IMG/VR virus record: IMGVR_UViG_2657244943_000004
DNA length: 19,187 nt
Source: a virus
Lineage: Duplodnaviria; Heunggongvirae; Uroviricota; Caudoviricetes
Strand: one strand, 5' to 3'
Below are positions 5,456 to 16,833 of this stretch, one piece after another (within the stretch, counting starts at the first letter, position 1; the number at the start of each line of letters is the position of its first letter). Position numbers and translations under genes: made by a program. The notes under the pieces were generated by a model. The model did no database searches. It had not been told where the DNA came from and saw nothing but the letters and a program-made list of their open reading frames with translations.

Positions 5456-6010
5456 TTATAAACCAACGCGCTCTTTCATCCAGCCATAGACAAACGACTC
5501 GTTAGCCTCGCGTTTCTCTGCCAGCGCCAGATAACGCTCACCCTGCGTACAGTTCAGGGCTTTCACCAGTACCAGTTCGCCATCCCTGCCGCGATTTTTC
5601 AGATAAGAACGTAACGCATTAATGGTTCGCGGCCCGATCCCCCCGTCTGTAACTATGTCCGGATACAGCATTCCCTTCTGATTAAACACATTCAGCCAGC
5701 GCTGAAGCATTTTTGTGGCTACCGACGGCCCCATGTTTACCCCGGTATCACACAGTTCTGCAGCAATATCAGGAGACAGGTTTGCCACCTGGTCAAAACG
5801 AGGTCCATACCAATAGTCCGCCTCAAGGATTTCCAGAGCCTGCCCGCGGCTCAAATCACGCATATCACCACGGTAACCATGCGCGCGCGCCACTTTTTCA
5901 GTAATTCCCCACTTCGTCGCTCCGCCTGTATCGTCAGGATGACTGACATAACCCCCCTCTTTTCCGAGGATTTCATCAAAAATTTCATCTCTCGATTTCA
6001 TATCAGCCAC
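5456..6010 (-). CDS. Endolysin, glycoside hydrolase family 108-like with predicted peptidoglycan-binding C-terminal region
   Basis: 184 aa. The N-terminal motif EGGYVSHPDDTGGATKWGIT is characteristic of GH108 N-acetylmuramidases. Last gene of the lysis cassette; start overlaps the upstream gene by 8 nt. Confidence 0.8.
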   Translation of the reverse strand: MADMKSRDEIFDEILGKEGGYVSHPDDTGGATKWGITEKVARAHGYRGDMRDLSRGQALEILEADYWYGPRFDQVANLSPDIAAELCDTGVNMGPSVATKMLQRWLNVFNQKGMLYPDIVTDGGIGPRTINALRSYLKNRGRDGELVLVKALNCTQGERYLALAEKREANESFVYGWMKERVGL

Positions 6011-6281
6011 TCAGGAAAGCAAAAATTTTTGAAACATTACCGCGCGCACGCACTACCATGACACCAAATACCAGGTTCAGCATCACCACCAGCCAGTCTG
6101 CCGGCAACGGATGACCACAGAGATAACTTAACGGCGTTATCGCATACAACAGCATCAGACACCAGGCGCACCACGATATCAGCGGTTTGTGTCGTGACTC
6201 TTTTCTGCGGTAGAAAAAAAGCGTCAGCACGATAACCGTACATAACGCCGCATTCAGTAATCCTGGAAGATTATTTGTCAT
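6003..6281 (-). CDS. Small two-TM membrane protein in lysis cassette (holin/antiholin-like or lysis accessory)
   Basis: 92 aa from the ATG at 6281, preceded by GGAGGAGG; hydrophobic segments LLNAALCTVIVLTLFFY and LVVMLNLVFGVMVV. Overlaps the putative holin stop and the endolysin start. The ORF-track start at 6299 is a GTG. Confidence 0.55.
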   Translation of the reverse strand: MTNNLPGLLNAALCTVIVLTLFFYRRKESRHKPLISWCAWCLMLLYAITPLSYLCGHPLPADWLVVMLNLVFGVMVVRARGNVSKIFAFLSG

Positions 6282-6663
6282 TACCACCACCTCCTCCACG
6301 CTGACGGGAGAACAGACCGGATACCAGTGATGTAATCTCCTGCTGGTGGATGAATGACAGGACTTTTACTGAGAGCACCGACACCAGGACCGCACACAAC
6401 GCATCAACGGAAGCACTGTTAAACCCAATACGTTCCGCCATGTAACCGGCCACACCACGGGCCCCAAGCACACCAACAATAAAGGACACCAGAAAATGTG
6501 CAGCCACACGCCAGGCTGAAAGTGTCTGCGGCATTGTTGCCACAAATAACGCACCAGCGAACGCACCAAATACAATCCCGAAATCCGTCCCGGTAAACAG
6601 CCCGAATACCGTCGCCCCGCCGAGCGCCACAGCAGTGCCGGAACCGGATAAGGGTTCAGACAT
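6271..6663 (-). CDS. Putative holin (about three TM segments)
   Basis: 130 aa from the ATG at 6663 with an AGGAGA RBS; Gly/Ala-rich hydrophobic segments; first gene of the lysis cassette. No similarity to lambda S, so the assignment is positional and topological. Confidence 0.6.
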   Translation of the reverse strand: MSEPLSGSGTAVALGGATVFGLFTGTDFGIVFGAFAGALFVATMPQTLSAWRVAAHFLVSFIVGVLGARGVAGYMAERIGFNSASVDALCAVLVSVLSVKVLSFIHQQEITSLVSGLFSRQRGGGGGNDK

Positions 6664-6862
6664 ATTTATTCTCCTGTAAATAAAAAGGACCATCAGCGGC
6701 CCCGTAACTGACATTTTATTAACGTTTGAAGATATGGATATTTATCAGGGTTTACCGTTTTCTGAACCCTGGATATGTTAAGCATTCAGCCCGCCAGTGG
6801 TGGGACGCTGGCTCATCATAGAGAAAGAGGGATGGCTGATTACCTCTGATCAGGGAAATTAC

Positions 6863-7132
6863 ATGCAGTTTTTACATAAAAGAATGCATTTAAATGCAGG
6901 AGATACGGTAGTGGTTGACTGCTCTCATCAGTGCAATATTTTGCTGATGACAGATACAAACTTTAATAACTACCGCAACGCAAGAAGCTTTCATCATCAC
7001 GGTGGTGGCGGTTTTTTTCAGAGATTACCGGCCCACCTTCATGTACCGCATTCAGGTTACTGGAATATTACAATTGATTTAGGAGGCGGAAGTGCAGCTA
7101 TTCGGCACTCCATTTCCGTCATCCCAGCATAG
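6863..7132 (+). CDS. Hypothetical protein (about 89 aa), His/Gly-rich
   Basis: ORF track 6797..7132 starts with GTG; the in-frame ATG at 6863 has an AGGG SD. Product contains HHHGGGGFF. Antisense to the late operon. No family recognised. Confidence 0.4.
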   Translation: MQFLHKRMHLNAGDTVVVDCSHQCNILLMTDTNFNNYRNARSFHHHGGGGFFQRLPAHLHVPHSGYWNITIDLGGGSAAIRHSISVIPA

Positions 7133-7498
7133 CAACTCGCCTTTAGCCTGAGTAAATGCGTCCTCAAGGACGGCAACGAGTCGCAGTTGCGTGCCGTCCT
7201 TTACACAGCGTGTGCAGGCAATACCTTCAGAACTTTCATTATGCCGAGCTCATACAATTTCACCATTTTGTTCAACTACAACGCTCATAATTTTCTTACA
7301 CTTTTTTAATAAACCACACCAATAACAACCATCACCGATACCTTTTGTATGCTGTTATTTTGCATTACGGTGTAACGGCAAGAGCCACCTCCCCGCCCAC
7401 CAACACACCATCAGCCAGTACCGACATCAACCGCCTAGTGAAATCCACTGCCACTACCAGAAACAACAGGATGGCAGCCAGCACAAGGCCCGCACTTT

Positions 7499-7924
7499 TC
7501 ACAGATACTGCTCCAGTGGTAACTGAAGCGCCTGTGCAATTTTCTTGAGCTGCGCTTCTTCATCCGGACCAATGCCATCCTGATCAGCGATATCCAGACA
7601 GAGGCAAAGCACGTCAACCGCCTCAGTTGTCCCCGCCACATCAGCCAGCTCACGTAATGCATGCGCATTCGCACTACGCGGTGACGCTTCATAACGGGCG
7701 CGGATATTGGCGCTCATCTGGGCAATCTCACCAGAGAACGGTGCAAAAGCAGGAAGCGCAGCAATGGTTTTCTCCAGTACTGCGATTTCTTTTGCGTCGC
7801 AGGTGCCGTCGGCATATGCAATGGAATATGCGCCCCAGACGGTCGCCTCCACCGCATCACGGTTCTCCATCTTCTTCACTTCAGTGATGGCCTTGCGGGT
7901 TTTCTTTTTGAAAATACCTAACAT
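7499..7924 (-). CDS. TerB-family (tellurite-resistance TerB-like) protein
   Basis: 141 aa; N- and C-terminal acidic motifs typical of TerB (YADGTCDAKEIAVLEKTIA ... DIADQDGIGPDEEAQLKKIAQALQL). Own transcription unit, downstream of the terminator at 8059-8082. Confidence 0.7.
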   Translation of the reverse strand: MLGIFKKKTRKAITEVKKMENRDAVEATVWGAYSIAYADGTCDAKEIAVLEKTIAALPAFAPFSGEIAQMSANIRARYEASPRSANAHALRELADVAGTTEAVDVLCLCLDIADQDGIGPDEEAQLKKIAQALQLPLEQYL

Positions 7925-8058
7925 CGTGACTTTTCCTTTGCGTAGACGAGCCTGCGCCAGATGGTTACCAGCCCACAGTGAAAGTCACACTGACAATCCC
8001 GTAAGCACCTCCTGAAAGGCTCTGTGTTTTTGATGTGCGCCAGGTGTGGCTCAGATAC

Positions 8059-8082
8059 AAAAAAAGCTCGCCGTAGCGAGCT
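8059..8082 (-). terminator. Rho-independent terminator (minus strand)
   Basis: Perfect 7-bp stem agctcgc / gcgagct with 4-nt loop, followed on the minus strand by a run of 7 U (plus-strand A-run 8059-8065); 24 nt after the stop of the 8106..8384 gene. Confidence 0.65.
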
Positions 8083-8105
8083 AACAGAAAATATGAAGCA
8101 TGTTT

Positions 8106-8384
8106 TTATCCACGAAGCATGACAATGAACTCATCCATGCCTACACGGCTGGCTATCTCGTTGTATTCCTCAACAAGAGCCAGCAATTCTGAATTAGCAG
8201 CCATGAACTCATCAAAAACCTTATGGATGGCATCACTGTTTAATAAAACAATGTTCTTTCCTGAAAGGCGATCAGGGGTAGAAAATATAACTGTTAAACG
8301 ACTAAAGGCCCTGGCTCGTTCAGCATTAACATCCTCAATACGCTGCAACAAGCTGGAGCACCTGGAAATATCATCAATATTCAC
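8106..8384 (-). CDS. Hypothetical protein, 92 aa
   Basis: GTG start at 8384 preceded by AGGAG with 4-nt spacing; followed by a clean terminator. No homology recognised. Confidence 0.5.
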   Translation of the reverse strand: MNIDDISRCSSLLQRIEDVNAERARAFSRLTVIFSTPDRLSGKNIVLLNSDAIHKVFDEFMAANSELLALVEEYNEIASRVGMDEFIVMLRG

Positions 8385-8903
8385 TCTACTCCTGCCATCT
8401 GGATGATAATCATTTCACGGAGAGAAGCACTCAGAAGTACCACTGAAGTATAACTGGTGACCAGCTGCTTACACATCTGTTGCCATCCTGCTGATGATAA
8501 GTCGATATTAACCCTTCTGTCTATAAACGAAACAAAGGATAAGTTCAGGTTTTAAACACACTGCCAGGATAAAGTATTGTATACAGTATAGAAGAGCGTT
8601 ATTGAATGACATAAAAAACCAGACCTAATCCCTTATCCGGAATATATATCAAATAAACGGGGAAAATGTATTAAGATGGCGTTCCTATTCTCTCCATCCC
8701 TGATGTCCACGTAACTCGTTATAGAATCAGAACGCCATCTGAATACACACAAAAAAGCTGGCTTCACACCCTCCTGCATGTGTGAACGCAGTGCCCGACC
8801 ACGTGCTTTCGCAACCAGCGAAAATCAGTTTTAAATACCGAAAAACGATAAGAATATATCAGAACTTCCAAGCATCCTGCTTGGCTTAGATATTAATCGA
8901 AGA

Positions 8904-9989
8904 TTAGCTCCTGTTCTTATCTAATTGTGCATTTCGCAATTTATCGTTCAGCACCAATATTTCACCAACTGTTTGTTCAAAACGCCCGGACTCAAGTTCA
9001 ACCCCAATCGTGCGACGCCCCAATCCCATTGCTGCTTTTATTGTTGCCCCCGATCCCATAAAAAAATCCGCAACCACATCCCCCGGACGACTGCTGGCAG
9101 AAATTATCTGACGCAACATATCCGCCGGTTTTTCGCAGGGATGCTTACCCGGATAATACTGTACGGGCTTATGCGTCCAGACATCCGTATAAGGAACGGC
9201 GGCCGATACAGAAAAATAACGCCGCAGAGATTTGTATTCCTCAAGCAGACTGGCATATTGCCGGTTCAGTTCACTGTATGTGCTGACCAGCAGTTGGTGT
9301 GGCGTTGCCAGCTCCCCACGCTGGTGTTTTTCTTCTGCAACACGCGCGAACAGCGCCTGCAGTTTTCTGTAATCAGCTTCGTTCGGTAACTGCCACTGAC
9401 TGGTACCAAACCAGTGCGACACCATGTTTTTCTTTCCGGTGGCTTCCGCTATCTGTTTGGACGTTATTCCCAGTGATTCACGCGCATCACGAAAGTAAAA
9501 AATCAGCGGGGCCATGACGTGTTGTTTAAGCTCGCGCTCCTTTGCCGCATAGCCGGCATTTTTTGGCTGATATGGCCCCTGATAATGTTCGGCAAACAGA
9601 ATGCGCTCTGTTGCCGGGAAATACGCCCGCAGGCTTTCTTTGTTGCACCCGTTCCAGCGTCCGGACGGCTTCGCCCAGATAATGTGGTTCAGCACATTAA
9701 AGCGCTCACGCATCATGATTTCGATATCAGATGCCAGGCGATGACCACAAAACAGGTAAAGACTTCCGGCAGGCTTCAGTACCCGCCAGAACTGAGCCAG
9801 ACACTGGTCCAGCCATTTCAGGTAATCATCGTCTCCCTTCCACTGGTTATCCCAGCCCTCGGGCTTCACTTTAAAATATGGCGGGTCTGTGACTATAAGA
9901 TCGACAGAGTTTTCCGATAAGGTCTGGATAAATTCCAGGCAATCGGTGTTGATTAACTCACAACTGGATATTTTTACAGTATCAACCAT
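8904..9989 (-). CDS. DNA methyltransferase, beta-class amino-MTase (N6-adenine or N4-cytosine), probably orphan
   Basis: 361 aa; catalytic DPPY motif near the N-terminus (LIVTDPPYF) and AdoMet motif near the C-terminus (VVADFFMGSGAT), i.e. beta-class order; about 120-aa insert between them. Architecture resembles YhdJ-type MTases. No restriction endonuclease gene nearby. Confidence 0.88.
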   Translation of the reverse strand: MVDTVKISSCELINTDCLEFIQTLSENSVDLIVTDPPYFKVKPEGWDNQWKGDDDYLKWLDQCLAQFWRVLKPAGSLYLFCGHRLASDIEIMMRERFNVLNHIIWAKPSGRWNGCNKESLRAYFPATERILFAEHYQGPYQPKNAGYAAKERELKQHVMAPLIFYFRDARESLGITSKQIAEATGKKNMVSHWFGTSQWQLPNEADYRKLQALFARVAEEKHQRGELATPHQLLVSTYSELNRQYASLLEEYKSLRRYFSVSAAVPYTDVWTHKPVQYYPGKHPCEKPADMLRQIISASSRPGDVVADFFMGSGATIKAAMGLGRRTIGVELESGRFEQTVGEILVLNDKLRNAQLDKNRS

Positions 9990-10139
9990 AGATCAATAAG
10001 CACTTCTCTGATAGGCTCATACCGCTTTTGCGCAAAGCGGATGGGCCTGAGGTTTGCTTGTGACCCCGATTCATGAGCAGATGGCTGGCAGGTGCCGCTA
10101 ACACCCACCAGCCGCCCATTACCACAAAGTAAAAAGCCT

Positions 10140-10337
10140 TCACTGCGGAAGGCGTCTGTAACAACCGAACTGATAATCTGCCAGACCCGCCATAACAAGC
10201 TGGGTCAGTATTAACTGGCAGCGTTCGCGTGAAAGGTAAGTATTCTGCGCAATTTCCCCAACTGTTGCCGGTTCAGTGACGCTTAATTCATTAAACACCA
10301 CTCTGGCTGTTTCTGTCATATCCTGCTGTTTTAGCAT
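10140..10337 (-). CDS. Small putative winged-helix DNA-binding protein (65 aa)
   Basis: Product contains PATVGEIAQNTYLSRERCQLILTQLVMAGLA, which looks like an HTH/winged-helix. Purine-rich region before the ATG. Between the membrane protein and MTase genes, same strand. Confidence 0.45.
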   Translation of the reverse strand: MLKQQDMTETARVVFNELSVTEPATVGEIAQNTYLSRERCQLILTQLVMAGLADYQFGCYRRLPQ

Positions 10338-10510: not shown

Positions 10511-11224
10511 TTAACGCACTCTGACTGTATTAATTTCAAAATCATTAATATTTCCGCTATTAAATATAACGAATTTCTTACCCCCACTCCTGTATGATTT
10601 CGATAACACCAGACGATCATCATAACGCGCAATAATGTAATACCATACATTCTCATAGTGGATCGCCTGATATTCCCTCTTAAACTGTGGTTTGTACCAA
10701 CCGGCAATAAGAGAGAATGCCCAGAAATAAATCATAAACCCAGCCATCATGAACTCAATTCGGTGATGGCGAATAAAAGACATTTCCGAAAAACATTTGA
10801 CTGAAACAAGTCTTCTTCCAGACCTGACAAAAAGCGTGATTGTAAAGGCAGCAAGAATGCAGAAAATCAGTACATCTGGCTCAACATGCTGATGAATTAC
10901 CGAAAACTCCAGAACAGGTGGAATAAAAAGCAGCAATATCGCGAGAAAAAGCCGGATAAAACTCAAATTTTGTATATTGCGCTTTTGTTTTATGCCCAAA
11001 AAGAAAACAATACCAACTCCCCATCCAATAAGGAATATAACGATAACTGTCACAGCATAAAACAAACTTCGTGCAACATCATCGACACCAGCCCCGACAA
11101 CCCACCATGGAAAGCCATAGTAAAATGAAGTACCCCATCCATAGAAATAAGCGCTTCCCCATCCTAGACAGCCCATATAAGCAACAAAAAGTGAAGAGTT
11201 TCTGAGCAGAGCACTGTCATTCAT
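10511..11224 (-). CDS. Multi-pass membrane protein of unknown function (237 aa), AT-rich accessory gene
   Basis: Several hydrophobic segments rich in aromatic/Gly residues; C-terminal soluble tail of about 60 aa. Visibly more AT-rich than flanking phage genes. First gene after the tR'-like terminator. Confidence 0.6.
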   Translation of the reverse strand: MNDSALLRNSSLFVAYMGCLGWGSAYFYGWGTSFYYGFPWWVVGAGVDDVARSLFYAVTVIVIFLIGWGVGIVFFLGIKQKRNIQNLSFIRLFLAILLLFIPPVLEFSVIHQHVEPDVLIFCILAAFTITLFVRSGRRLVSVKCFSEMSFIRHHRIEFMMAGFMIYFWAFSLIAGWYKPQFKREYQAIHYENVWYYIIARYDDRLVLSKSYRSGGKKFVIFNSGNINDFEINTVRVR

Positions 11225-11442: not shown

Positions 11443-11471
11443 AATATATGCGTTTTAATCTACTTTTGCAA
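11443..11471 (-). promoter_or_regulatory. Candidate late promoter (pR'-like), minus strand
   Basis: Minus strand TTGCAA (11471..11466), 17-nt spacer, TATATT (11448..11443), overlapping the 3' end of Q; predicted start near 11436. Sequence inference only. Confidence 0.45.
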
Positions 11472-11478
11472 TACTTTG

Positions 11479-12144
11479 CTATGAAAATGCCGCCTTTTGT
11501 TTTGAACGTGTTCTCTCCACTAACAATAAAGCTTCACTATCCAGCCGATGAAAAATGTGTTTCATTGCAACCCAGTGACCAGTAAATGTCTTGGACCAGT
11601 TTTTGGTTGTTACTCCCACCAGTAACGCCAGTTCCTGGTATTCGTAACCTTCCCCACCAAAAAGCTCAGCTTTTACCGCCTGCGCCACCAACCAGATCAA
11701 CGTCTTCAGGCGCACCAGAGTTTTTCCTGCAATTTTTCTGGTACCGGATTGAGCATTAAATTCAGTCCACGCCCACTGCGTTATCGCGATCTGATGCTCC
11801 CAGCAAATGCTACCGCTGTAACACCACAGCAGCCAGGCTTTATGATGTTCTTCAAGAGACAGAACGGCGCGTCGCCATGATGATGTCGAAAACTCAACCG
11901 GACTGACCAGGGCAATTGATGAACCTTTCGCCAGCGATTGCTTTCCCGGGATCGGTGGATTATCCAGCGTTACTATTTTTCCAGTGACCTTATCGCGGTA
12001 CCGGATTTTTTTACGTCTGTAACGCCCTGTATTGAACATGGCATTCTCCTGCCAGGCTTCAAGCTGACCTTTTGTTGCTCCACTCAAATCAGCGGTGGCG
12101 ATCGTGAGCTGCTCACGCACAAACTGTAAATACTGGTTATTCAT
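11479..12144 (-). CDS. Putative late-gene antiterminator (Q-like), 221 aa
   Basis: Called mainly by synteny: directly downstream of rusA (ATG overlaps the rusA stop as ATGA) and directly upstream of the promoter/terminator pair and lysis genes. No Cys zinc-finger as in lambda Q. The family is not confirmed. Confidence 0.55.
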   Translation of the reverse strand: MNNQYLQFVREQLTIATADLSGATKGQLEAWQENAMFNTGRYRRKKIRYRDKVTGKIVTLDNPPIPGKQSLAKGSSIALVSPVEFSTSSWRRAVLSLEEHHKAWLLWCYSGSICWEHQIAITQWAWTEFNAQSGTRKIAGKTLVRLKTLIWLVAQAVKAELFGGEGYEYQELALLVGVTTKNWSKTFTGHWVAMKHIFHRLDSEALLLVERTRSKQKAAFS

Positions 12145-12500
12145 GCGCACTCCAGTTCTGTGATTTTTATCCCCAGCCGACCACCGGGAACAACCTGACC
12201 GCGCATAATATTAACTTCATCAAACTGCTCGTCGTCGATAAGCAGTCCCGCATGTGTCAGTGCATCCAGTGGTGCTTTCAGAATATTGTCCAGGTCACGA
12301 CGGCGCTTATCCGGTGGCTCTGCAATAATTTTTATTGCCAGCCTTCCGGACAGATTTAATTTCAGCCGCTGCTGGCGAACAATAAGCGCCACATCCCGGC
12401 GATAACGCTCCCCTGCTTTTGATACAAAATATGTGCTGCCACGACGACGCCAGTAGGTATTTACCGTCGGCGGGTAAGGCAAAACAAATTCTATCCCCAT
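12141..12500 (-). CDS. rusA: Holliday-junction resolvase RusA
   Basis: 119 aa from the ATG at 12500; RRDLDN motif (PPDKRRRDLDNILKAPLDALTHAGLLIDD) and overall resemblance to E. coli RusA. Typical nin-region position. Confidence 0.9.
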   Translation of the reverse strand: MGIEFVLPYPPTVNTYWRRRGSTYFVSKAGERYRRDVALIVRQQRLKLNLSGRLAIKIIAEPPDKRRRDLDNILKAPLDALTHAGLLIDDEQFDEVNIMRGQVVPGGRLGIKITELECA

Positions 12501-14226: not shown

Positions 14227-14457
14227 TCAAGTTAAGTGTGGGTGCATTGAGGATGCCTGACTCATCAGAGGTGGCGAGGGATTTCTCCCTCGCCTGGTCT
14301 CTAACTCCTCAGGTTCGTAAGCTGTGAAGACAGCGACCTCCGTTTGGCTGGTTCGGATTCGTACCTCACAGAGATCTTTCCTCGTTACCAGTGCCGTCAC
14401 AATGACAGTTAAACAGATGACAATCAGGGCGATTAACATCGCCTTATGCTGCTTCAT
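14227..14457 (-). CDS. hok: Hok/Gef-family type I toxin gene with C-terminal read-through extension (or pseudogene)
   Basis: From the ATG at 14457: MKQHKAMLIALIVICLTVIVTALVTRKDLCEVRIRTSQTEVAVFTAYEPEE, a near match to chromosomal Hok/Gef toxins (about 50 aa). The codon at 14302-14304, where the stop is expected, is TTA, so the frame continues 26 codons to TGA at 14227-14229. Which hok paralogue this is remains uncertain. Confidence 0.85.
   Translation of the reverse strand: MKQHKAMLIALIVICLTVIVTALVTRKDLCEVRIRTSQTEVAVFTAYEPEELETRRGRNPSPPLMSQASSMHPHLT
14273..14294 (-). other. Perfect 9-bp hairpin in the hok 3' region
   Basis: ggcgaggga-tttc-tccctcgcc; position corresponds to the 3' stem-loop of hok-family mRNAs. 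It lies inside the extended reading frame. Confidence 0.6.
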
Positions 14458-15084
14458 AGCCTGCTTCTCCTTGCCTTTCGGCACGTAAGAGGCTAACCTA
14501 CGTGTGCAAGTCATAGATATGGCCTCAGATTAATGTTAGGCGTCTTGCAGGACGCGTAATGTTAACTGGGGCTTTTCTCTATCTGCCGTTGGTATTCATG
14601 CCTGAGACAGATAGCCTCAAGCACCCGCAGCAATCCTACTTAACTCCCGTCACCTCGCCAATATAAAATCAATCAGAAAGGCGATCCATAAGAACAACAG
14701 CAAGACAATAAATTGCCATTACAGCCGCAATAGCGAGCGCACATTTGAGAACCAGCACGACAACCTCCTGTATTGGACGTACACCAGTCCTGATAAATAT
14801 GAGGCTGTCTCATCATTGATTCAATAAAACTATTGGGAATAGTTTCTGTGATTTTGTTCTGTAGAAATGGAACACAACAACCAGTCACCACCAGCACTTC
14901 TTTAAAAACGCCAAGTCCGACGCAAGCTAACCTTCTAGTCCGCTTTGAACGATGAGCGGAAATTGACATATCTGTTAAAGTGAATGGTTCGTTTTGCAGG
15001 GATACTTACACTGCCCCCTGTCAAAATGATATACCGAAGAATAAGAGTTCTTCTTCAAGAACAACAAAAAGAGATCATTCCAGC

Positions 15085-15482: not shown

Positions 15483-16181
15483 ATGAAAAAAGAACTTGAA
15501 ACCATACTGCCTGAGTTTGGTGAGGCAATTCGCCCTTACGTTTATAGTTACGTAACAGCAAACAAAAATGCCAATGCCAAGCACGTCCTGTTTATGGCTG
15601 GTTCGCCTGCTGCAGGTAAAACCGAGCTCTTAAATCGTCTTTTAGAACAACATGGCATCACAAACATTGTTCGAATTGATGCTGATGATTTTCGCTGGTG
15701 GTTCCCCTACTACAATGAAGAGAACTCTGTGGACTATCAGAGACCTGCCTCCAGAATGGTCGATTTTATCTACAAAAAAGCGCTATCTGAAGGCTATCCC
15801 ATTGTTATGGACTCTACTTTCTCCAGTATAGGTATTGCGGAGAGAAACTTTGATCTGGCCCTGAAGGCTGGTTATCAGGTAGCACTGAATTACGTCTATT
15901 TTGATCCGGCTTACGCGTGGGTTTTTGCCCAAGCCCGCTCTCGTAAGGTTCCGTTAGAGGTTCTTAAAGCGAACTTTTTCAAGAGCAGAGAGACCATTGA
16001 ACATATGCTCGCGAAATATGCAGGCCTATTTACACTCAATGTTTATCATCGACGGGAAGATCCTGAAAATGATGGTCAGTTCGTGGTCGACTATACTCCT
16101 AACGTGACCCTTGAAAACTGGACTACCTCCCATAGCTGCCCATATTCAGACGTTAGCGATCTAGCGCATTTAGGTGTATAA
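15483..16181 (+). CDS. Zeta-toxin-like P-loop kinase (AAA-like NTP-binding domain)
   Basis: Walker A GSPAAGKTE at residues 40-48, followed by VRIDADDFRWWFP, resembling the catalytic Asp region of zeta/PezT-type kinases; 232 aa. Family assignment from motifs only. Confidence 0.7.
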   Translation: MKKELETILPEFGEAIRPYVYSYVTANKNANAKHVLFMAGSPAAGKTELLNRLLEQHGITNIVRIDADDFRWWFPYYNEENSVDYQRPASRMVDFIYKKALSEGYPIVMDSTFSSIGIAERNFDLALKAGYQVALNYVYFDPAYAWVFAQARSRKVPLEVLKANFFKSRETIEHMLAKYAGLFTLNVYHRREDPENDGQFVVDYTPNVTLENWTTSHSCPYSDVSDLAHLGV

Positions 16182-16200: not shown

Positions 16201-16833
16201 GTGTATATGTCTGTTAAAACTGAAGCCATTAAACCAGTTGCTGAAATTTCGTTGTTCGATGCATTCGGACCTAACGTGAGCGAGCGGGTACAAGCCATCA
16301 ACCGGAAGGCCGCTGAGCTTTCTATGGCTGATATGGCTCAGGTAATGGACGTGACATTATCGTCTAGGAAGAAACTGGAAGTAACTGCTGAGAGCAAATA
16401 TATTCTCGATTTTCCTCAATGGCTAGAAGTCAATGCACGGAAACCTGGAGTTTCTTTTGACATGAAAGCATACACTTCTGTTGAAGTTAAAAAGATGCAT
16501 GTTCCTGACTTTCGCCAGTTCCTTCCTGTAGGTGCAAATATGTTGCATACCTATTCACCAATCGGTAAAACGGGCCTGCAAGGAATTCATGATTATTTAA
16601 TCGGTGCTGTTTCATCTAAACTTCATCACTTGCAAGGTGTCGGAGTTGATGAGGGCACGTTTAAAATACTTATCCGCTATGAAGATGCTAAAACGGGTGC
16701 TCCCCGCAATGATATAGTTGAAGCTGAGTCGACAATTAGCCCAAGTTCTTTCACTAGGCTCAAGCCCCGTGTGAAAAAACTTCGCAGAAAAGGTCATGAA
16801 ATGGCGATGCATGCACTAATTGCCAAAAAATAG
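16201..16833 (+). CDS. Hypothetical protein (210 aa), translationally coupled partner of the zeta-like kinase
   Basis: Starts 20 nt after the kinase stop with a strong SD (AAGGAG); followed by a terminator. No motif recognised; basic C-terminal tail (KPRVKKLRRKGH). Confidence 0.6.
   Translation: MYMSVKTEAIKPVAEISLFDAFGPNVSERVQAINRKAAELSMADMAQVMDVTLSSRKKLEVTAESKYILDFPQWLEVNARKPGVSFDMKAYTSVEVKKMHVPDFRQFLPVGANMLHTYSPIGKTGLQGIHDYLIGAVSSKLHHLQGVGVDEGTFKILIRYEDAKTGAPRNDIVEAESTISPSSFTRLKPRVKKLRRKGHEMAMHALIAKK

Follow-up and report, generated by a model that had tools for sequence, protein, structure and literature searches.

A tciAB cassette behind a terminator and a predicted pseudoknotted leader RNA in the late region of an Escherichia coli lambdoid prophage

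The closest described relatives of the tci genes discussed here are tciA, tciB and tciC of phage P1, of which tciA has been annotated for twenty years with a function assigned by homology only. In lambdoid phages, accessory genes are known as morons when a promoter, a gene and a terminator are inserted together between conserved genes, a concept that comes from phages HK97 and HK022. Leaders that sequester the Shine-Dalgarno (SD) sequence, and locks on antirepressor genes, are known from the hairpins of T4 I-TevI and Aeh1 mobE, the RNase III site of the lambda N leader, and sar/ant and c4/ant of P22 and P1, respectively. RNA polymerase modified by the antiterminator Q ignores downstream intrinsic terminators. 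Here we describe a stretch of 19,187 nucleotides (nt), called the window, from the IMG/VR virus record IMGVR_UViG_2657244943_000004 (Caudoviricetes). It carries a tciAB cassette of the kind already known from P1, next to a gene for a protein of 92 amino acids (aa).

The window comes from an Escherichia coli prophage of the Qin/lambdoid and Q type, of which it forms the right arm, and it is 100 % identical to a locus of strain ARS-C301. Its late genes are on the minus strand in the order Q, 237-aa gene, 65-aa gene, methyltransferase gene, 92-aa gene, tciA and tciB, and 3' of tciB there is an opposite-strand DUF1883 gene, followed by two holin-family genes, a GH108 endolysin gene and the terminase genes (Table 1). 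A preliminary description, made from the letters of the sequence, had placed a TerB-domain gene in this late region, 5' of the lysis genes, and such a gene (7924..7499, minus strand) is indeed present. It had also taken this gene and the 92-aa gene for two separate morons, each transcribed independently because of a strong terminator between them. We consider a different arrangement probable, namely that two unrelated accessory units were inserted into a Q-dependent late operon, and that tciAB, a lytic-cycle unit, stands behind a terminator, a GC-rich hairpin (H0) and a leader RNA that hides the SD.

Terminator, leader and transcription of tciAB

In four distant cassettes the 130 nt from the terminator to the start codon of tciA are conserved to the same degree as the coding sequence. 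The leader begins with CACAGAG, which is the 5' strand of a pseudoknot, and continues with CCUUUCAGG as the anti-SD. Helix H2 comes next, its two strands enclosing hairpin H3, and then CUAAAAGG, which holds the SD (AAAGG) and is followed after 6-10 nt by AUG. The loop of H3 contains CUCUGUG, which pairs with CACAGAG to form the pseudoknot. The pairing CCUUU:AAAGG puts the SD inside the closing helix, and these pairs are kept in 96-100 % across the members. The SD is paired in the minimum-free-energy (MFE) folds of canonical members, the 3' end of the fold always carries the SD and the start codon at the same place, and independent folding of seven members less than 90 % alike gave one common shape.

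Covariation was assessed by comparing pairing in the proposed columns with pairing after the partners had been slid by 1-3 columns, and by counting the shuffles that reached the observed score. When the alignment was made with MAFFT only (18 distinct sequences), 88 % of the cells were paired, compared to 36-56 % after sliding, with 11 two-sided changes. The model-based alignments A5 (45 distinct sequences) and A7 (28 distinct sequences) had 93 and 91 % of the cells paired, 29-52 and 34-53 % after sliding, and two-sided changes in 19/32 and 18/32 pairs, respectively. None of the 500 shuffles reached the observed score with any of the three alignments. The pseudoknot is not contained in the covariance model, and its helix was nevertheless 96 % paired, with CG, UA, AU and GC all occurring at one position. 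Complementary variants were CAUAGAG:CUCUAUG, CAGAGAG:CUCUCUG, CCAAGA:UCUUGG and CAUCGAA:UUCGAUG, and in phage HK106 CGAGAG:CUCUCG. The frequent G.U pairs fit only the tciA-sense strand. The leader thus appears to be a structured RNA family, well supported by covariation and apparently undescribed. Searches against Rfam 15 with the window copy and the canonical VT1-Sakai copy gave no match at the gathering thresholds, and only chance-level ones at E <= 10. A full-text literature search for the invariant 16-mer and its variants yielded no relevant paper, and nothing relevant came from keywords on leaders or pseudoknots of antirepressor genes.

The terminator named in the preliminary description was found, and it was the best on its strand in the late region. 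Its stem (8082..8065) has 7 base pairs (bp), five of them GC pairs, and a 4-nt loop, and the T-run extends to 8059. An equivalent hairpin with a T-run was present no more than 110 nt 5' of CACAGAG (33-76 nt, mostly 35-49 nt) in 55 of 59 distinct contexts, with stems of differing sequence, and we therefore regard the terminator as an integral part of the element. H0, which lies between the terminator and the leader, has the family variants GCGCC-N6-GGCGC, CGCGC-N7-GCGCG and GCGUC-N6-GACGC, i.e. compensatory changes.

The element is not restricted to tciA. When IMG/VR was scanned with the invariant 16-mer CACAGAGCCTTTCAGG, at least 120 loci were obtained, and tciA was the next gene in fewer than half of the matches listed. 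A second scan with a different anchor and parsing gave 123 leader copies with 64 distinct sequences, the downstream genes of which were assigned by Pfam. Antirepressor-type genes (KilA-N, Rha and KilA-N+P63C, many with an ORF11CD3 tail) followed 33 distinct leaders and tciA 23, while P22_AR_N antirepressors followed five, an HNH_3 endonuclease gene two and a T5orf172/GIY-YIG-like gene one. Among phage records, 298 contain the element, and more than half of these are Shiga toxin (Stx)-converting phages; it precedes ant in many Stx1 and Stx2 phages. It was also found in genomes of Salmonella, Erwinia, Pantoea, Mixta, Rosenbergiella, Sodalis, Edwardsiella and others.

Some phage contigs have two or three leader copies before different genes, e.g. 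tciA and an antirepressor gene (L161 627-739 and 1994-2103; L128 2146-2250 and 7117-7226; L201; L147; L003 6504-6594). Weak, divergent leaders of about 32-34 bits are among them, which hints at a wider family.

All annotated contexts examined were late-operon positions. In VT1-Sakai the element and ant are located between the endolysin gene R and Rz, the gene being annotated there as 933W L0109. In HK106 the element comes after Rz and before a GIY-YIG gene, and its hairpin is annotated as a rho-independent terminator. In phage Fostie it lies about 100 nt 3' of a pR'-like promoter that follows Q, i.e. in the position of tR', and in an Stx2e prophage (L005) and the prophage of strain 08-00022 (L006) it lies between the stx/tRNA (transfer RNA) genes and the holin gene. 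As late expression of Rz and the holins is required, the late transcript must run past the terminators of the element. No sigma-70-like promoter was detected between the terminator and tciA (8064-7925) in a consensus scan, a method that can miss weak, non-consensus or activated promoters, and the same scan gave no site in the 1.75 kb around the canonical copy of the Stx2e prophage. As no such promoter was detected 5' of tciA, tciAB is more probably a late-operon cassette that is read by Q-modified polymerase than a moron expressed independently in the lysogen.

We propose that in a lysogen, without Q, transcription arriving from upstream morons would stop at the terminator. After induction, Q-modified polymerase would read through the terminator, and the folded leader would then limit the access of ribosomes, which would result in a small or gated amount of TciA and TciB from an abundant late mRNA. 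TciA would be a cytoplasmic protein of TerB fold and TciB a membrane protein of about 50 aa, the two acting together at the inner membrane during lytic growth. The lock is shared with antirepressor, HNH and GIY-YIG genes, the leak of which would be harmful, and this argues that tciA is a gene of the lytic cycle and not of lysogenic conversion. The occurrence of tciA homologues in strictly lytic phages also argues for a lytic-cycle role. Sharing a lock with genes of this kind suggests a lytic-phase function for TciA, possibly a toxic one, with TciB as its membrane partner; the suggestion agrees only loosely with the old label 'inhibition of cell division / colicin resistance'. A TerB-like gene would in itself be ordinary; it is the wiring that hints at a lytic and possibly toxic role, as opposed to the benefit for the lysogen implied by the words 'tellurite resistance' and 'moron'.

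Several points weigh against this reading. Terminator-like hairpins are present on both sides of tciAB, which fits a self-contained unit, and it is possible that a non-consensus or activator-dependent promoter is located inside the leader. The sequestration of the SD is predicted from thermodynamics and covariation; folding z-scores of single members were modest (-1.2 to -3.8), and the MFE fold of the window leader leaves the SD unpaired, unlike those of five canonical members. We infer the membrane complex of TciA and TciB from gene coupling, one fusion protein and hydrophobicity. Finally, P1 tciA has no such leader and lies 3' of the C1-controlled ban promoters, so that regulation differs between phage types.

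The boundaries of homology separate the 92-aa gene from tciAB. The Stx2e prophage, the prophage of strain 08-00022 and Fostie have tciAB without the 92-aa gene. Homology of the two prophages with the window starts at 8081-8097, i.e. at or before the terminator, and this makes the terminator the first part of the tciA unit; the stretch 8081/8097..7337/7386 of the window is also present in other prophages. Homology with the more divergent Fostie starts at 8050, where this phage has a hairpin of its own. Conversely, the only homologue of the 92-aa gene in the phage collection, mEp460_ev081, lies between Q and the lysis genes, adjoining a tRNA gene and without tciAB, and its homology with the window comprises the open reading frame (ORF) and about 35 nt upstream, ending at the end of the ORF before the terminator. 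In prophages of the TK3896 type the flanks are 98-99 % identical to those in the window and exactly a 612-bp segment is missing (Table 1), whereas the 92-aa gene and the terminator are retained, together with 16 nt from the start of the leader and 34 nt from the end of tciB. This two-piece pattern was seen in at least seven records among the matches listed. On the evidence of these boundaries, the 92-aa gene and tciAB are separate mosaic units. A 7-nt repeat, GGAGGTG, was considered as microhomology for the deletion in TK3896 and rejected, as the junction shows a 2-nt overlap only. The tRNA gene of mEp460 has its 3' end upstream of the 92-aa homologue.

Switching, decay and moron readings of the locus

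It is conceivable that the leader is a true switch or processing site, i.e. a riboswitch, a self-cleaving RNA, a binding site for a protein or small RNA (sRNA) of phage or host, or a site at which cutting by RNase III exposes the SD, and we give this idea tentative standing, as the less probable course. Beyond the needs of the structure, the segments CACAGAGCCUUUCAGG, CUCUGUGGG and CACUAAAAGG are nearly invariant. A C opposite an A inside the SD/anti-SD helix is kept in at least 95 % of the members (A7 columns 15/110; about 8012/7939 in the window), and among the conserved unpaired G residues the one that follows the pseudoknot's 3' strand is invariant (A7 column 67); these positions may serve in recognition or in tertiary contacts. 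Pseudoknots of this architecture are typical of ligand-binding RNAs, and H1 combined with H2 gives an irregular duplex about 20 bp long, the kind of duplex that RNase III cuts in lambda and T7 mRNAs. As the SD is transcribed last, an OFF state would be expected as the default. Yet no known riboswitch or ribozyme model matches the leader, the downstream genes have no common metabolic theme that would point to a ligand, and the present data identify no trans-acting factor.

In its broadest form, the same idea would make the element an undescribed class of phage riboregulator, a genuine switch operated by a ligand, protein, sRNA, RNase or self-cleavage, which gates translation of antirepressor genes (including ant of Shiga-toxin phages), nuclease genes and tciA in Q-dependent late operons across Enterobacterales. 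We would rate this, too, as a possibility well short of an even chance. Antirepressors influence prophage induction. A genuine switch would add a new post-transcriptional level of control over prophage induction and late-gene dosage, and it would mark tciA as a lytic-cycle effector. A conserved cis-acting RNA that controls translation of antirepressors would be of practical interest, and the idea is directly testable.

Somewhat more doubtful is the view that tciAB of the window prophage is in decay and has lost most or all of its function. The window leader is the lowest-scoring match among the full-length leaders (65.6 bits compared to 72-111 for most others). H0 has an A.G mismatch, the pseudoknot strand reads CACUGUG instead of CUCUGUG, H2 has several mismatches, and CGCAAAGG stands where the family has CACUAAAAGG. 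A 5-nt deletion in tciB relative to other copies (alignment A2; compared to L005 4584-4736) shifts the frame, so that the protein has 45 aa and lacks the usual basic C-terminal tail, whereas elsewhere it has 50-54 aa. Sister prophages have deleted the cassette outright, the RefSeq annotation of the neighbouring genes includes a frameshifted pseudogene and a truncated hokD, and tciA, tciB and tciC of P1 are non-essential by CRISPR interference (PMC10695390). However, TciA in the window is intact, 96-97 % identical to the commonest E. coli clusters and has kept all the family-invariant residues, the terminator is intact, and a free SD could equally mean de-repression. The tciAB locus may thus be either de-repressed or decaying in the lineage of the window.

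A reading of the 92-aa gene and tciA as a pair of classic morons, in which each would have a promoter and a terminator of its own, be expressed while the prophage is repressed and confer on the lysogen a stress, tellurite-resistance or phage-resistance phenotype, seems unlikely to us. The two units are separately mobile, and in this respect the proposal of two separate units stands. Furthermore, tciAB is flanked on both sides by terminator-like hairpins, opposite-strand genes (DUF1883, iraM) share its neighbourhood, and PHROGs files the families of TciA (632) and TciB (1470) under 'moron, auxiliary metabolic gene and host takeover'. The 92-aa gene has a distinctly low GC content (about 0.42, compared to 0.52-0.54 for tciA) and an AT-rich upstream gap of 519 nt with promoter-like hexamers. 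These sites are, however, no commoner than in shuffled sequence (four found in the region, 4.3 expected), and the best one, at 8494..8523, is not within the stretch that the mEp460 homologue has in common with the window. The gap itself contained no tRNA gene and no Rfam match.

For tciA, several observations speak against autonomous transcription. The consensus scan found no promoter-like site between the terminator and the gene, either in the window or in canonical copies, and a covarying RNA fold in which the SD is hidden fills the 102 nt in front of tciA. The element also stands inside lysis cassettes and directly after pR', tciA has homologues in strictly lytic phages, no other ter genes are annotated nearby, and PADLOC gave no matches. 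Independent transcription of the two genes does not follow from the terminator, as had been thought, because the terminator travels with tciA: it begins within 24 nt 3' of the 92-aa gene, but evolutionarily it is part of the tciA module. The preliminary description had itself named co-transcription with the late operon only as a finding that would speak against its morons, and by this measure the evidence from the sequence tilts away from tciA as a moron.

A second terminator-like hairpin is located 15-25 nt 5' of the first holin gene, and the Stx2e prophage has a homologous one between its tciB and holin genes (L005 4785-4800), from which it follows that the late operon of these phages has terminators before several successive modules. 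We had considered the lack of a terminator after tciB as an argument against a self-contained unit, and dropped it, since a hairpin precedes the holin gene both here and in that prophage.

It is very improbable that the conserved sequence 5' of tciA acts as DNA, as a recombination linker or protein-binding site: the TK3896-type deletion breaks exactly at the end of the invariant 16-mer, partial copies end part-way, after the 16-mer and before unrelated sequence (L019, L022, L078, L098), and lambdoid module boundaries are known recombination points, but the helices vary and still keep their pairing, with two-sided changes in 18-19 of 32 pairs and also in the pseudoknot outside the model, G.U pairs are tolerated on one strand only, and the SD and the start codon are fixed at the 3' end of the fold.

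TciA, TciB and the surrounding prophage genes

TciA of the window is 87.2 % identical to P1 TciA over the full 141 aa (tblastn of phage genomes). It matched PHROG 632 'tellurite resistance' over its full length (E 2.5e-65), and RefSeq labels it 'tellurite resistance TerB family protein'. As the preliminary description had expected, the Pfam TerB profile PF05099 was matched above its cutoff (30.9 bits compared to 24.4; E 3.6e-7), although only residues 11-57, i.e. 47 of 141, aligned, to profile positions 60-106. The acidic motifs noticed in that description also fit the family, forming a duplicated (A)DG...E pattern, AYADGTCDAKE (residues 36-46) and ADQDGIGPDEE (113-123), which is conserved across the family and is a putative metal-binding motif. 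Across 21 TciA homologues D43, D111 and D114 were invariant and D39, E46, D116 and E122 nearly so. In the fold comparison TciA was an all-helical bundle, with the TerB-like structures 2h5n and 2ou3 as the nearest, whereas the family profile found by sequence no TerB and nothing meaningful among the solved structures at E <= 1. The assignment to the TerB fold and family, backed by motif, profile and fold, is therefore sound, yet TciA is not the TerB of a ter operon.

At the DNA level, tciA homologues were present in 237 of 5426 complete E. coli genomes. P1-like phage-plasmids have homologues as well, and so do strictly lytic phages, among them Erwinia jumbo, N4-like and Pseudomonas phages. The identical RefSeq locus of ARS-C301 has 27 annotated features over 19.4 kb, and no other Ter protein is among them. 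The PADLOC defence models did not match TciA, TciB, the 92-aa protein or the DUF1883 protein, and NCBIfam did not match any of the six proteins searched. The annotated neighbours and the PADLOC search thus connect tciA neither with tellurite resistance nor with a known defence system. A literature search for TciA found no experimental report of a phenotype. TciA peptides have been detected in P1 virion preparations and were set aside as non-structural (PMC9024508), and a lone phage terB has been argued to be unable to confer tellurite resistance (PMC8421299). TerB genes are reported in a preprint to be commonly within 10 kb of the prophage sRNAs PasA and PasC in enteropathogenic and enterohaemorrhagic E. 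coli. The link with PasA/PasC was rejected for the window, from which the probe sequences (PMC8550237 supplement) are absent with up to three mismatches allowed.

The preliminary description had overlooked the 45-aa tciB (7502..7365). Its GTG start overlaps the stop codon of tciA (GTGA, 7502..7499), and the protein matched Pfam DUF3927 (E 9.5e-10) and PHROG 1470 'TciB-like' (E 8.3e-16); P1 TciB is the archetype of DUF3927 (E 7e-31). A tciB-like ORF was directly 3' of tciA in 53 of 63 loci, and a fused TerB+DUF3927 protein was also found (P0058). For tciC, of which the P1 protein has no Pfam family to search with, no minus-strand ORF of at least 20 aa was found between 7365 and 7275.

The 92-aa gene proposed in the preliminary description is real and conserved. 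In addition to its PHROG match, it has a consistent pattern of conserved columns across 14 homologues, and its AF2 model reached a predicted local distance difference test (pLDDT) score of 91.9. The family is tiny, with four clusters among 5.8e9 proteins and 18 representatives among 1.84e9, the gene is confined to a handful of prophages, and no match was obtained in Pfam, NCBIfam or PADLOC. The fold search returned only generic helical hairpins (prefoldin beta as the best PDB match, with E 1e-2 and a template-modelling score, TM, of 0.7; TraM-like proteins; designed coiled coils) and was rejected as a source of function.

Table 1 Features of the window, listed in the direction of late transcription
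Feature	Position	Strand	Basis or remark
210-aa hypothetical gene, next after zeta-toxin gene	16201-16833	+	strand opposite to phage early/late genes
Zeta-toxin family gene	15483-16181	+	strand opposite to phage early/late genes
sok antisense RNA, adjoining hokD that RefSeq marks truncated	14452-14626	-	Rfam RF01794, 108 bits
Antiterminator Q gene	12150..11479	-	Pfam Phage_antiter_Q, E 2e-89
pR'-like promoter directly after Q	11471..11443	-	promoter scan
237-aa multi-pass membrane protein gene, among the first genes after the pR'-like promoter	10511-11224	-	PHROG 1521; low GC, 0.36-0.40
65-aa protein gene, with the 237-aa gene first after the pR'-like promoter	10140-10337	-	weak winged-helix (TrmB) match
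Terminator-like hairpin overlapping end of 65-aa gene	10153..10136	-	hairpin scan
Orphan N6/N4 DNA methyltransferase gene inside late operon	8904-9989	-	Pfam E 7e-43; PADLOC MTase_II E 3.5e-152
AT-rich non-coding gap between methyltransferase and 92-aa genes, 519 nt	8385-8903		GC 0.38-0.42; short ORFs only
Further candidate sigma-70-like site 5' of 92-aa gene	8612..8585	-	consensus scan
Best sigma-70-like site in gap, TAGACA-18-TATCAT, 10/12, candidate promoter	8494..8523	-	consensus scan
92-aa gene, GTG start; predicted helix / beta-hairpin / helix coiled-coil hairpin	8106..8384	-	PHROG 2873, E 1.8e-46
Rho-independent terminator, AGCUCGC-UACG-GCGAGCU and U-run	8055..8082	-	hairpin scan; 5' part of tciA module
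GC hairpin H0, GAGCC-ACACCU-GGCGC, one A.G mismatch	8037..8052	-	read by eye from alignments
Pseudoknotted 5' leader	7925..8026	-	covariance model R1, single window copy 7922..8026, 65.6 bits, E 1e-16
612-bp segment deleted in e.g. TK3896 (most of leader, tciA, most of tciB)	7399..8010	-	BLAST junctions, 2-nt overlap
tciA, 141 aa, TerB fold, orthologue of P1 TciA	7499..7924	-	Pfam, PHROG, tblastn
tciB, 45-aa hydrophobic DUF3927 protein, GTG start	7365..7502	-	Pfam, PHROG
DUF1883 gene, antisense to late operon, between tciB and holin genes	6797-7132	+	Pfam E 3e-26
Second terminator-like hairpin, just 5' of first holin gene	6676..6703	-	hairpin scan
Holin-family gene 1	6714..6271	-	Pfam
Holin-family gene 2	6299..6003	-	Pfam
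GH108 endolysin gene	6010..5456	-	Pfam

Other parts of the neighbourhood touch the cassette less directly. The methyltransferase gene (8904-9989) has no restriction partner nearby. In the prophage of strain 08-00022 the slot of the DUF1883 gene is occupied by an opposite-strand gene for the anti-adaptor IraM (L006 5023-5358), and the slot may be a hot spot for reverse-oriented genes that are presumably expressed in the lysogen. The tciAB genes are repeatedly found beside phage tRNA genes, namely Asn/Thr and Ile in P1 (L002 2116-2269, 3701-3776) and, in lambdoid prophages, Thr/Gly (L005 3435-3588) or Ile/Thr/Gly (L006 3398-3707). No tRNA gene was found in the window, though tRNA genes flank tciAB in P1 and other prophages.

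Comparison with known systems

The TerB of ter operons (terZABCDE of IncHI2 plasmids and O157 islands), which confer resistance to tellurite and colicins and inhibit phages, resembles TciA in belonging to PF05099, in its all-helical, TerB-like bundle (SCOP TerB-like fold) and in the duplicated acidic motif. It differs in that TciA is covered by Pfam over only 47 of 141 residues and is linked by sequence to no solved TerB at E <= 1. No terZ, terA, terC, terD or terE is annotated in the 19-kb neighbourhood either, and the partner of TciA is a DUF3927 protein and not TerC.

The likeness to P1 tciABC is much closer, with TciA 87 % identical and a DUF3927 TciB next to it, the stop and start codons overlapping. 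As in several lambdoid copies of tciAB, tRNA genes are close by in P1. However, the order in P1 is tciA-tciB-tciC, whereas the window has no tciC, and P1 TciB has 54 aa compared to 45 aa in the window. The terminator/leader element is absent upstream of P1 tciA, and the P1 genes lie 3' of the ban promoters and not in a Q-dependent late operon.

With lambda pR'/tR'/Q the element shares its position in Fostie, where the terminator stands about 100 nt 3' of the pR'-like promoter, like tR'. In the window, on the other hand, it is about 3.4 kb 3' of Q, behind four other genes, and other phages have it within or following the lysis cassette. From these positions it follows that the element is not simply tR'.

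Like lambdoid morons, tciAB is polymorphic in presence and absence between near-identical prophages, occupies the hot spot between Q and the lysis genes that also holds stx, and has terminator-like hairpins on its flanks. Its order is, however, terminator, structured leader and genes, with no detectable promoter and with the SD masked. The masked SD, as predicted by the fold, is a design for silence in the lysogen and not for autonomous expression.

The SD-sequestering leaders and antirepressor locks differ from the element in that the latter is a larger fold of three helices and a pseudoknot, has an obligatory upstream terminator and hairpin, and has no Rfam model, and no antisense RNA or internal late promoter is evident at it. 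What the element shares with them is the principle: a cis-acting RNA occludes the ribosome-binding site of a potentially harmful mobile gene within a larger operon, and here the genes include antirepressors and HNH and GIY-YIG genes.

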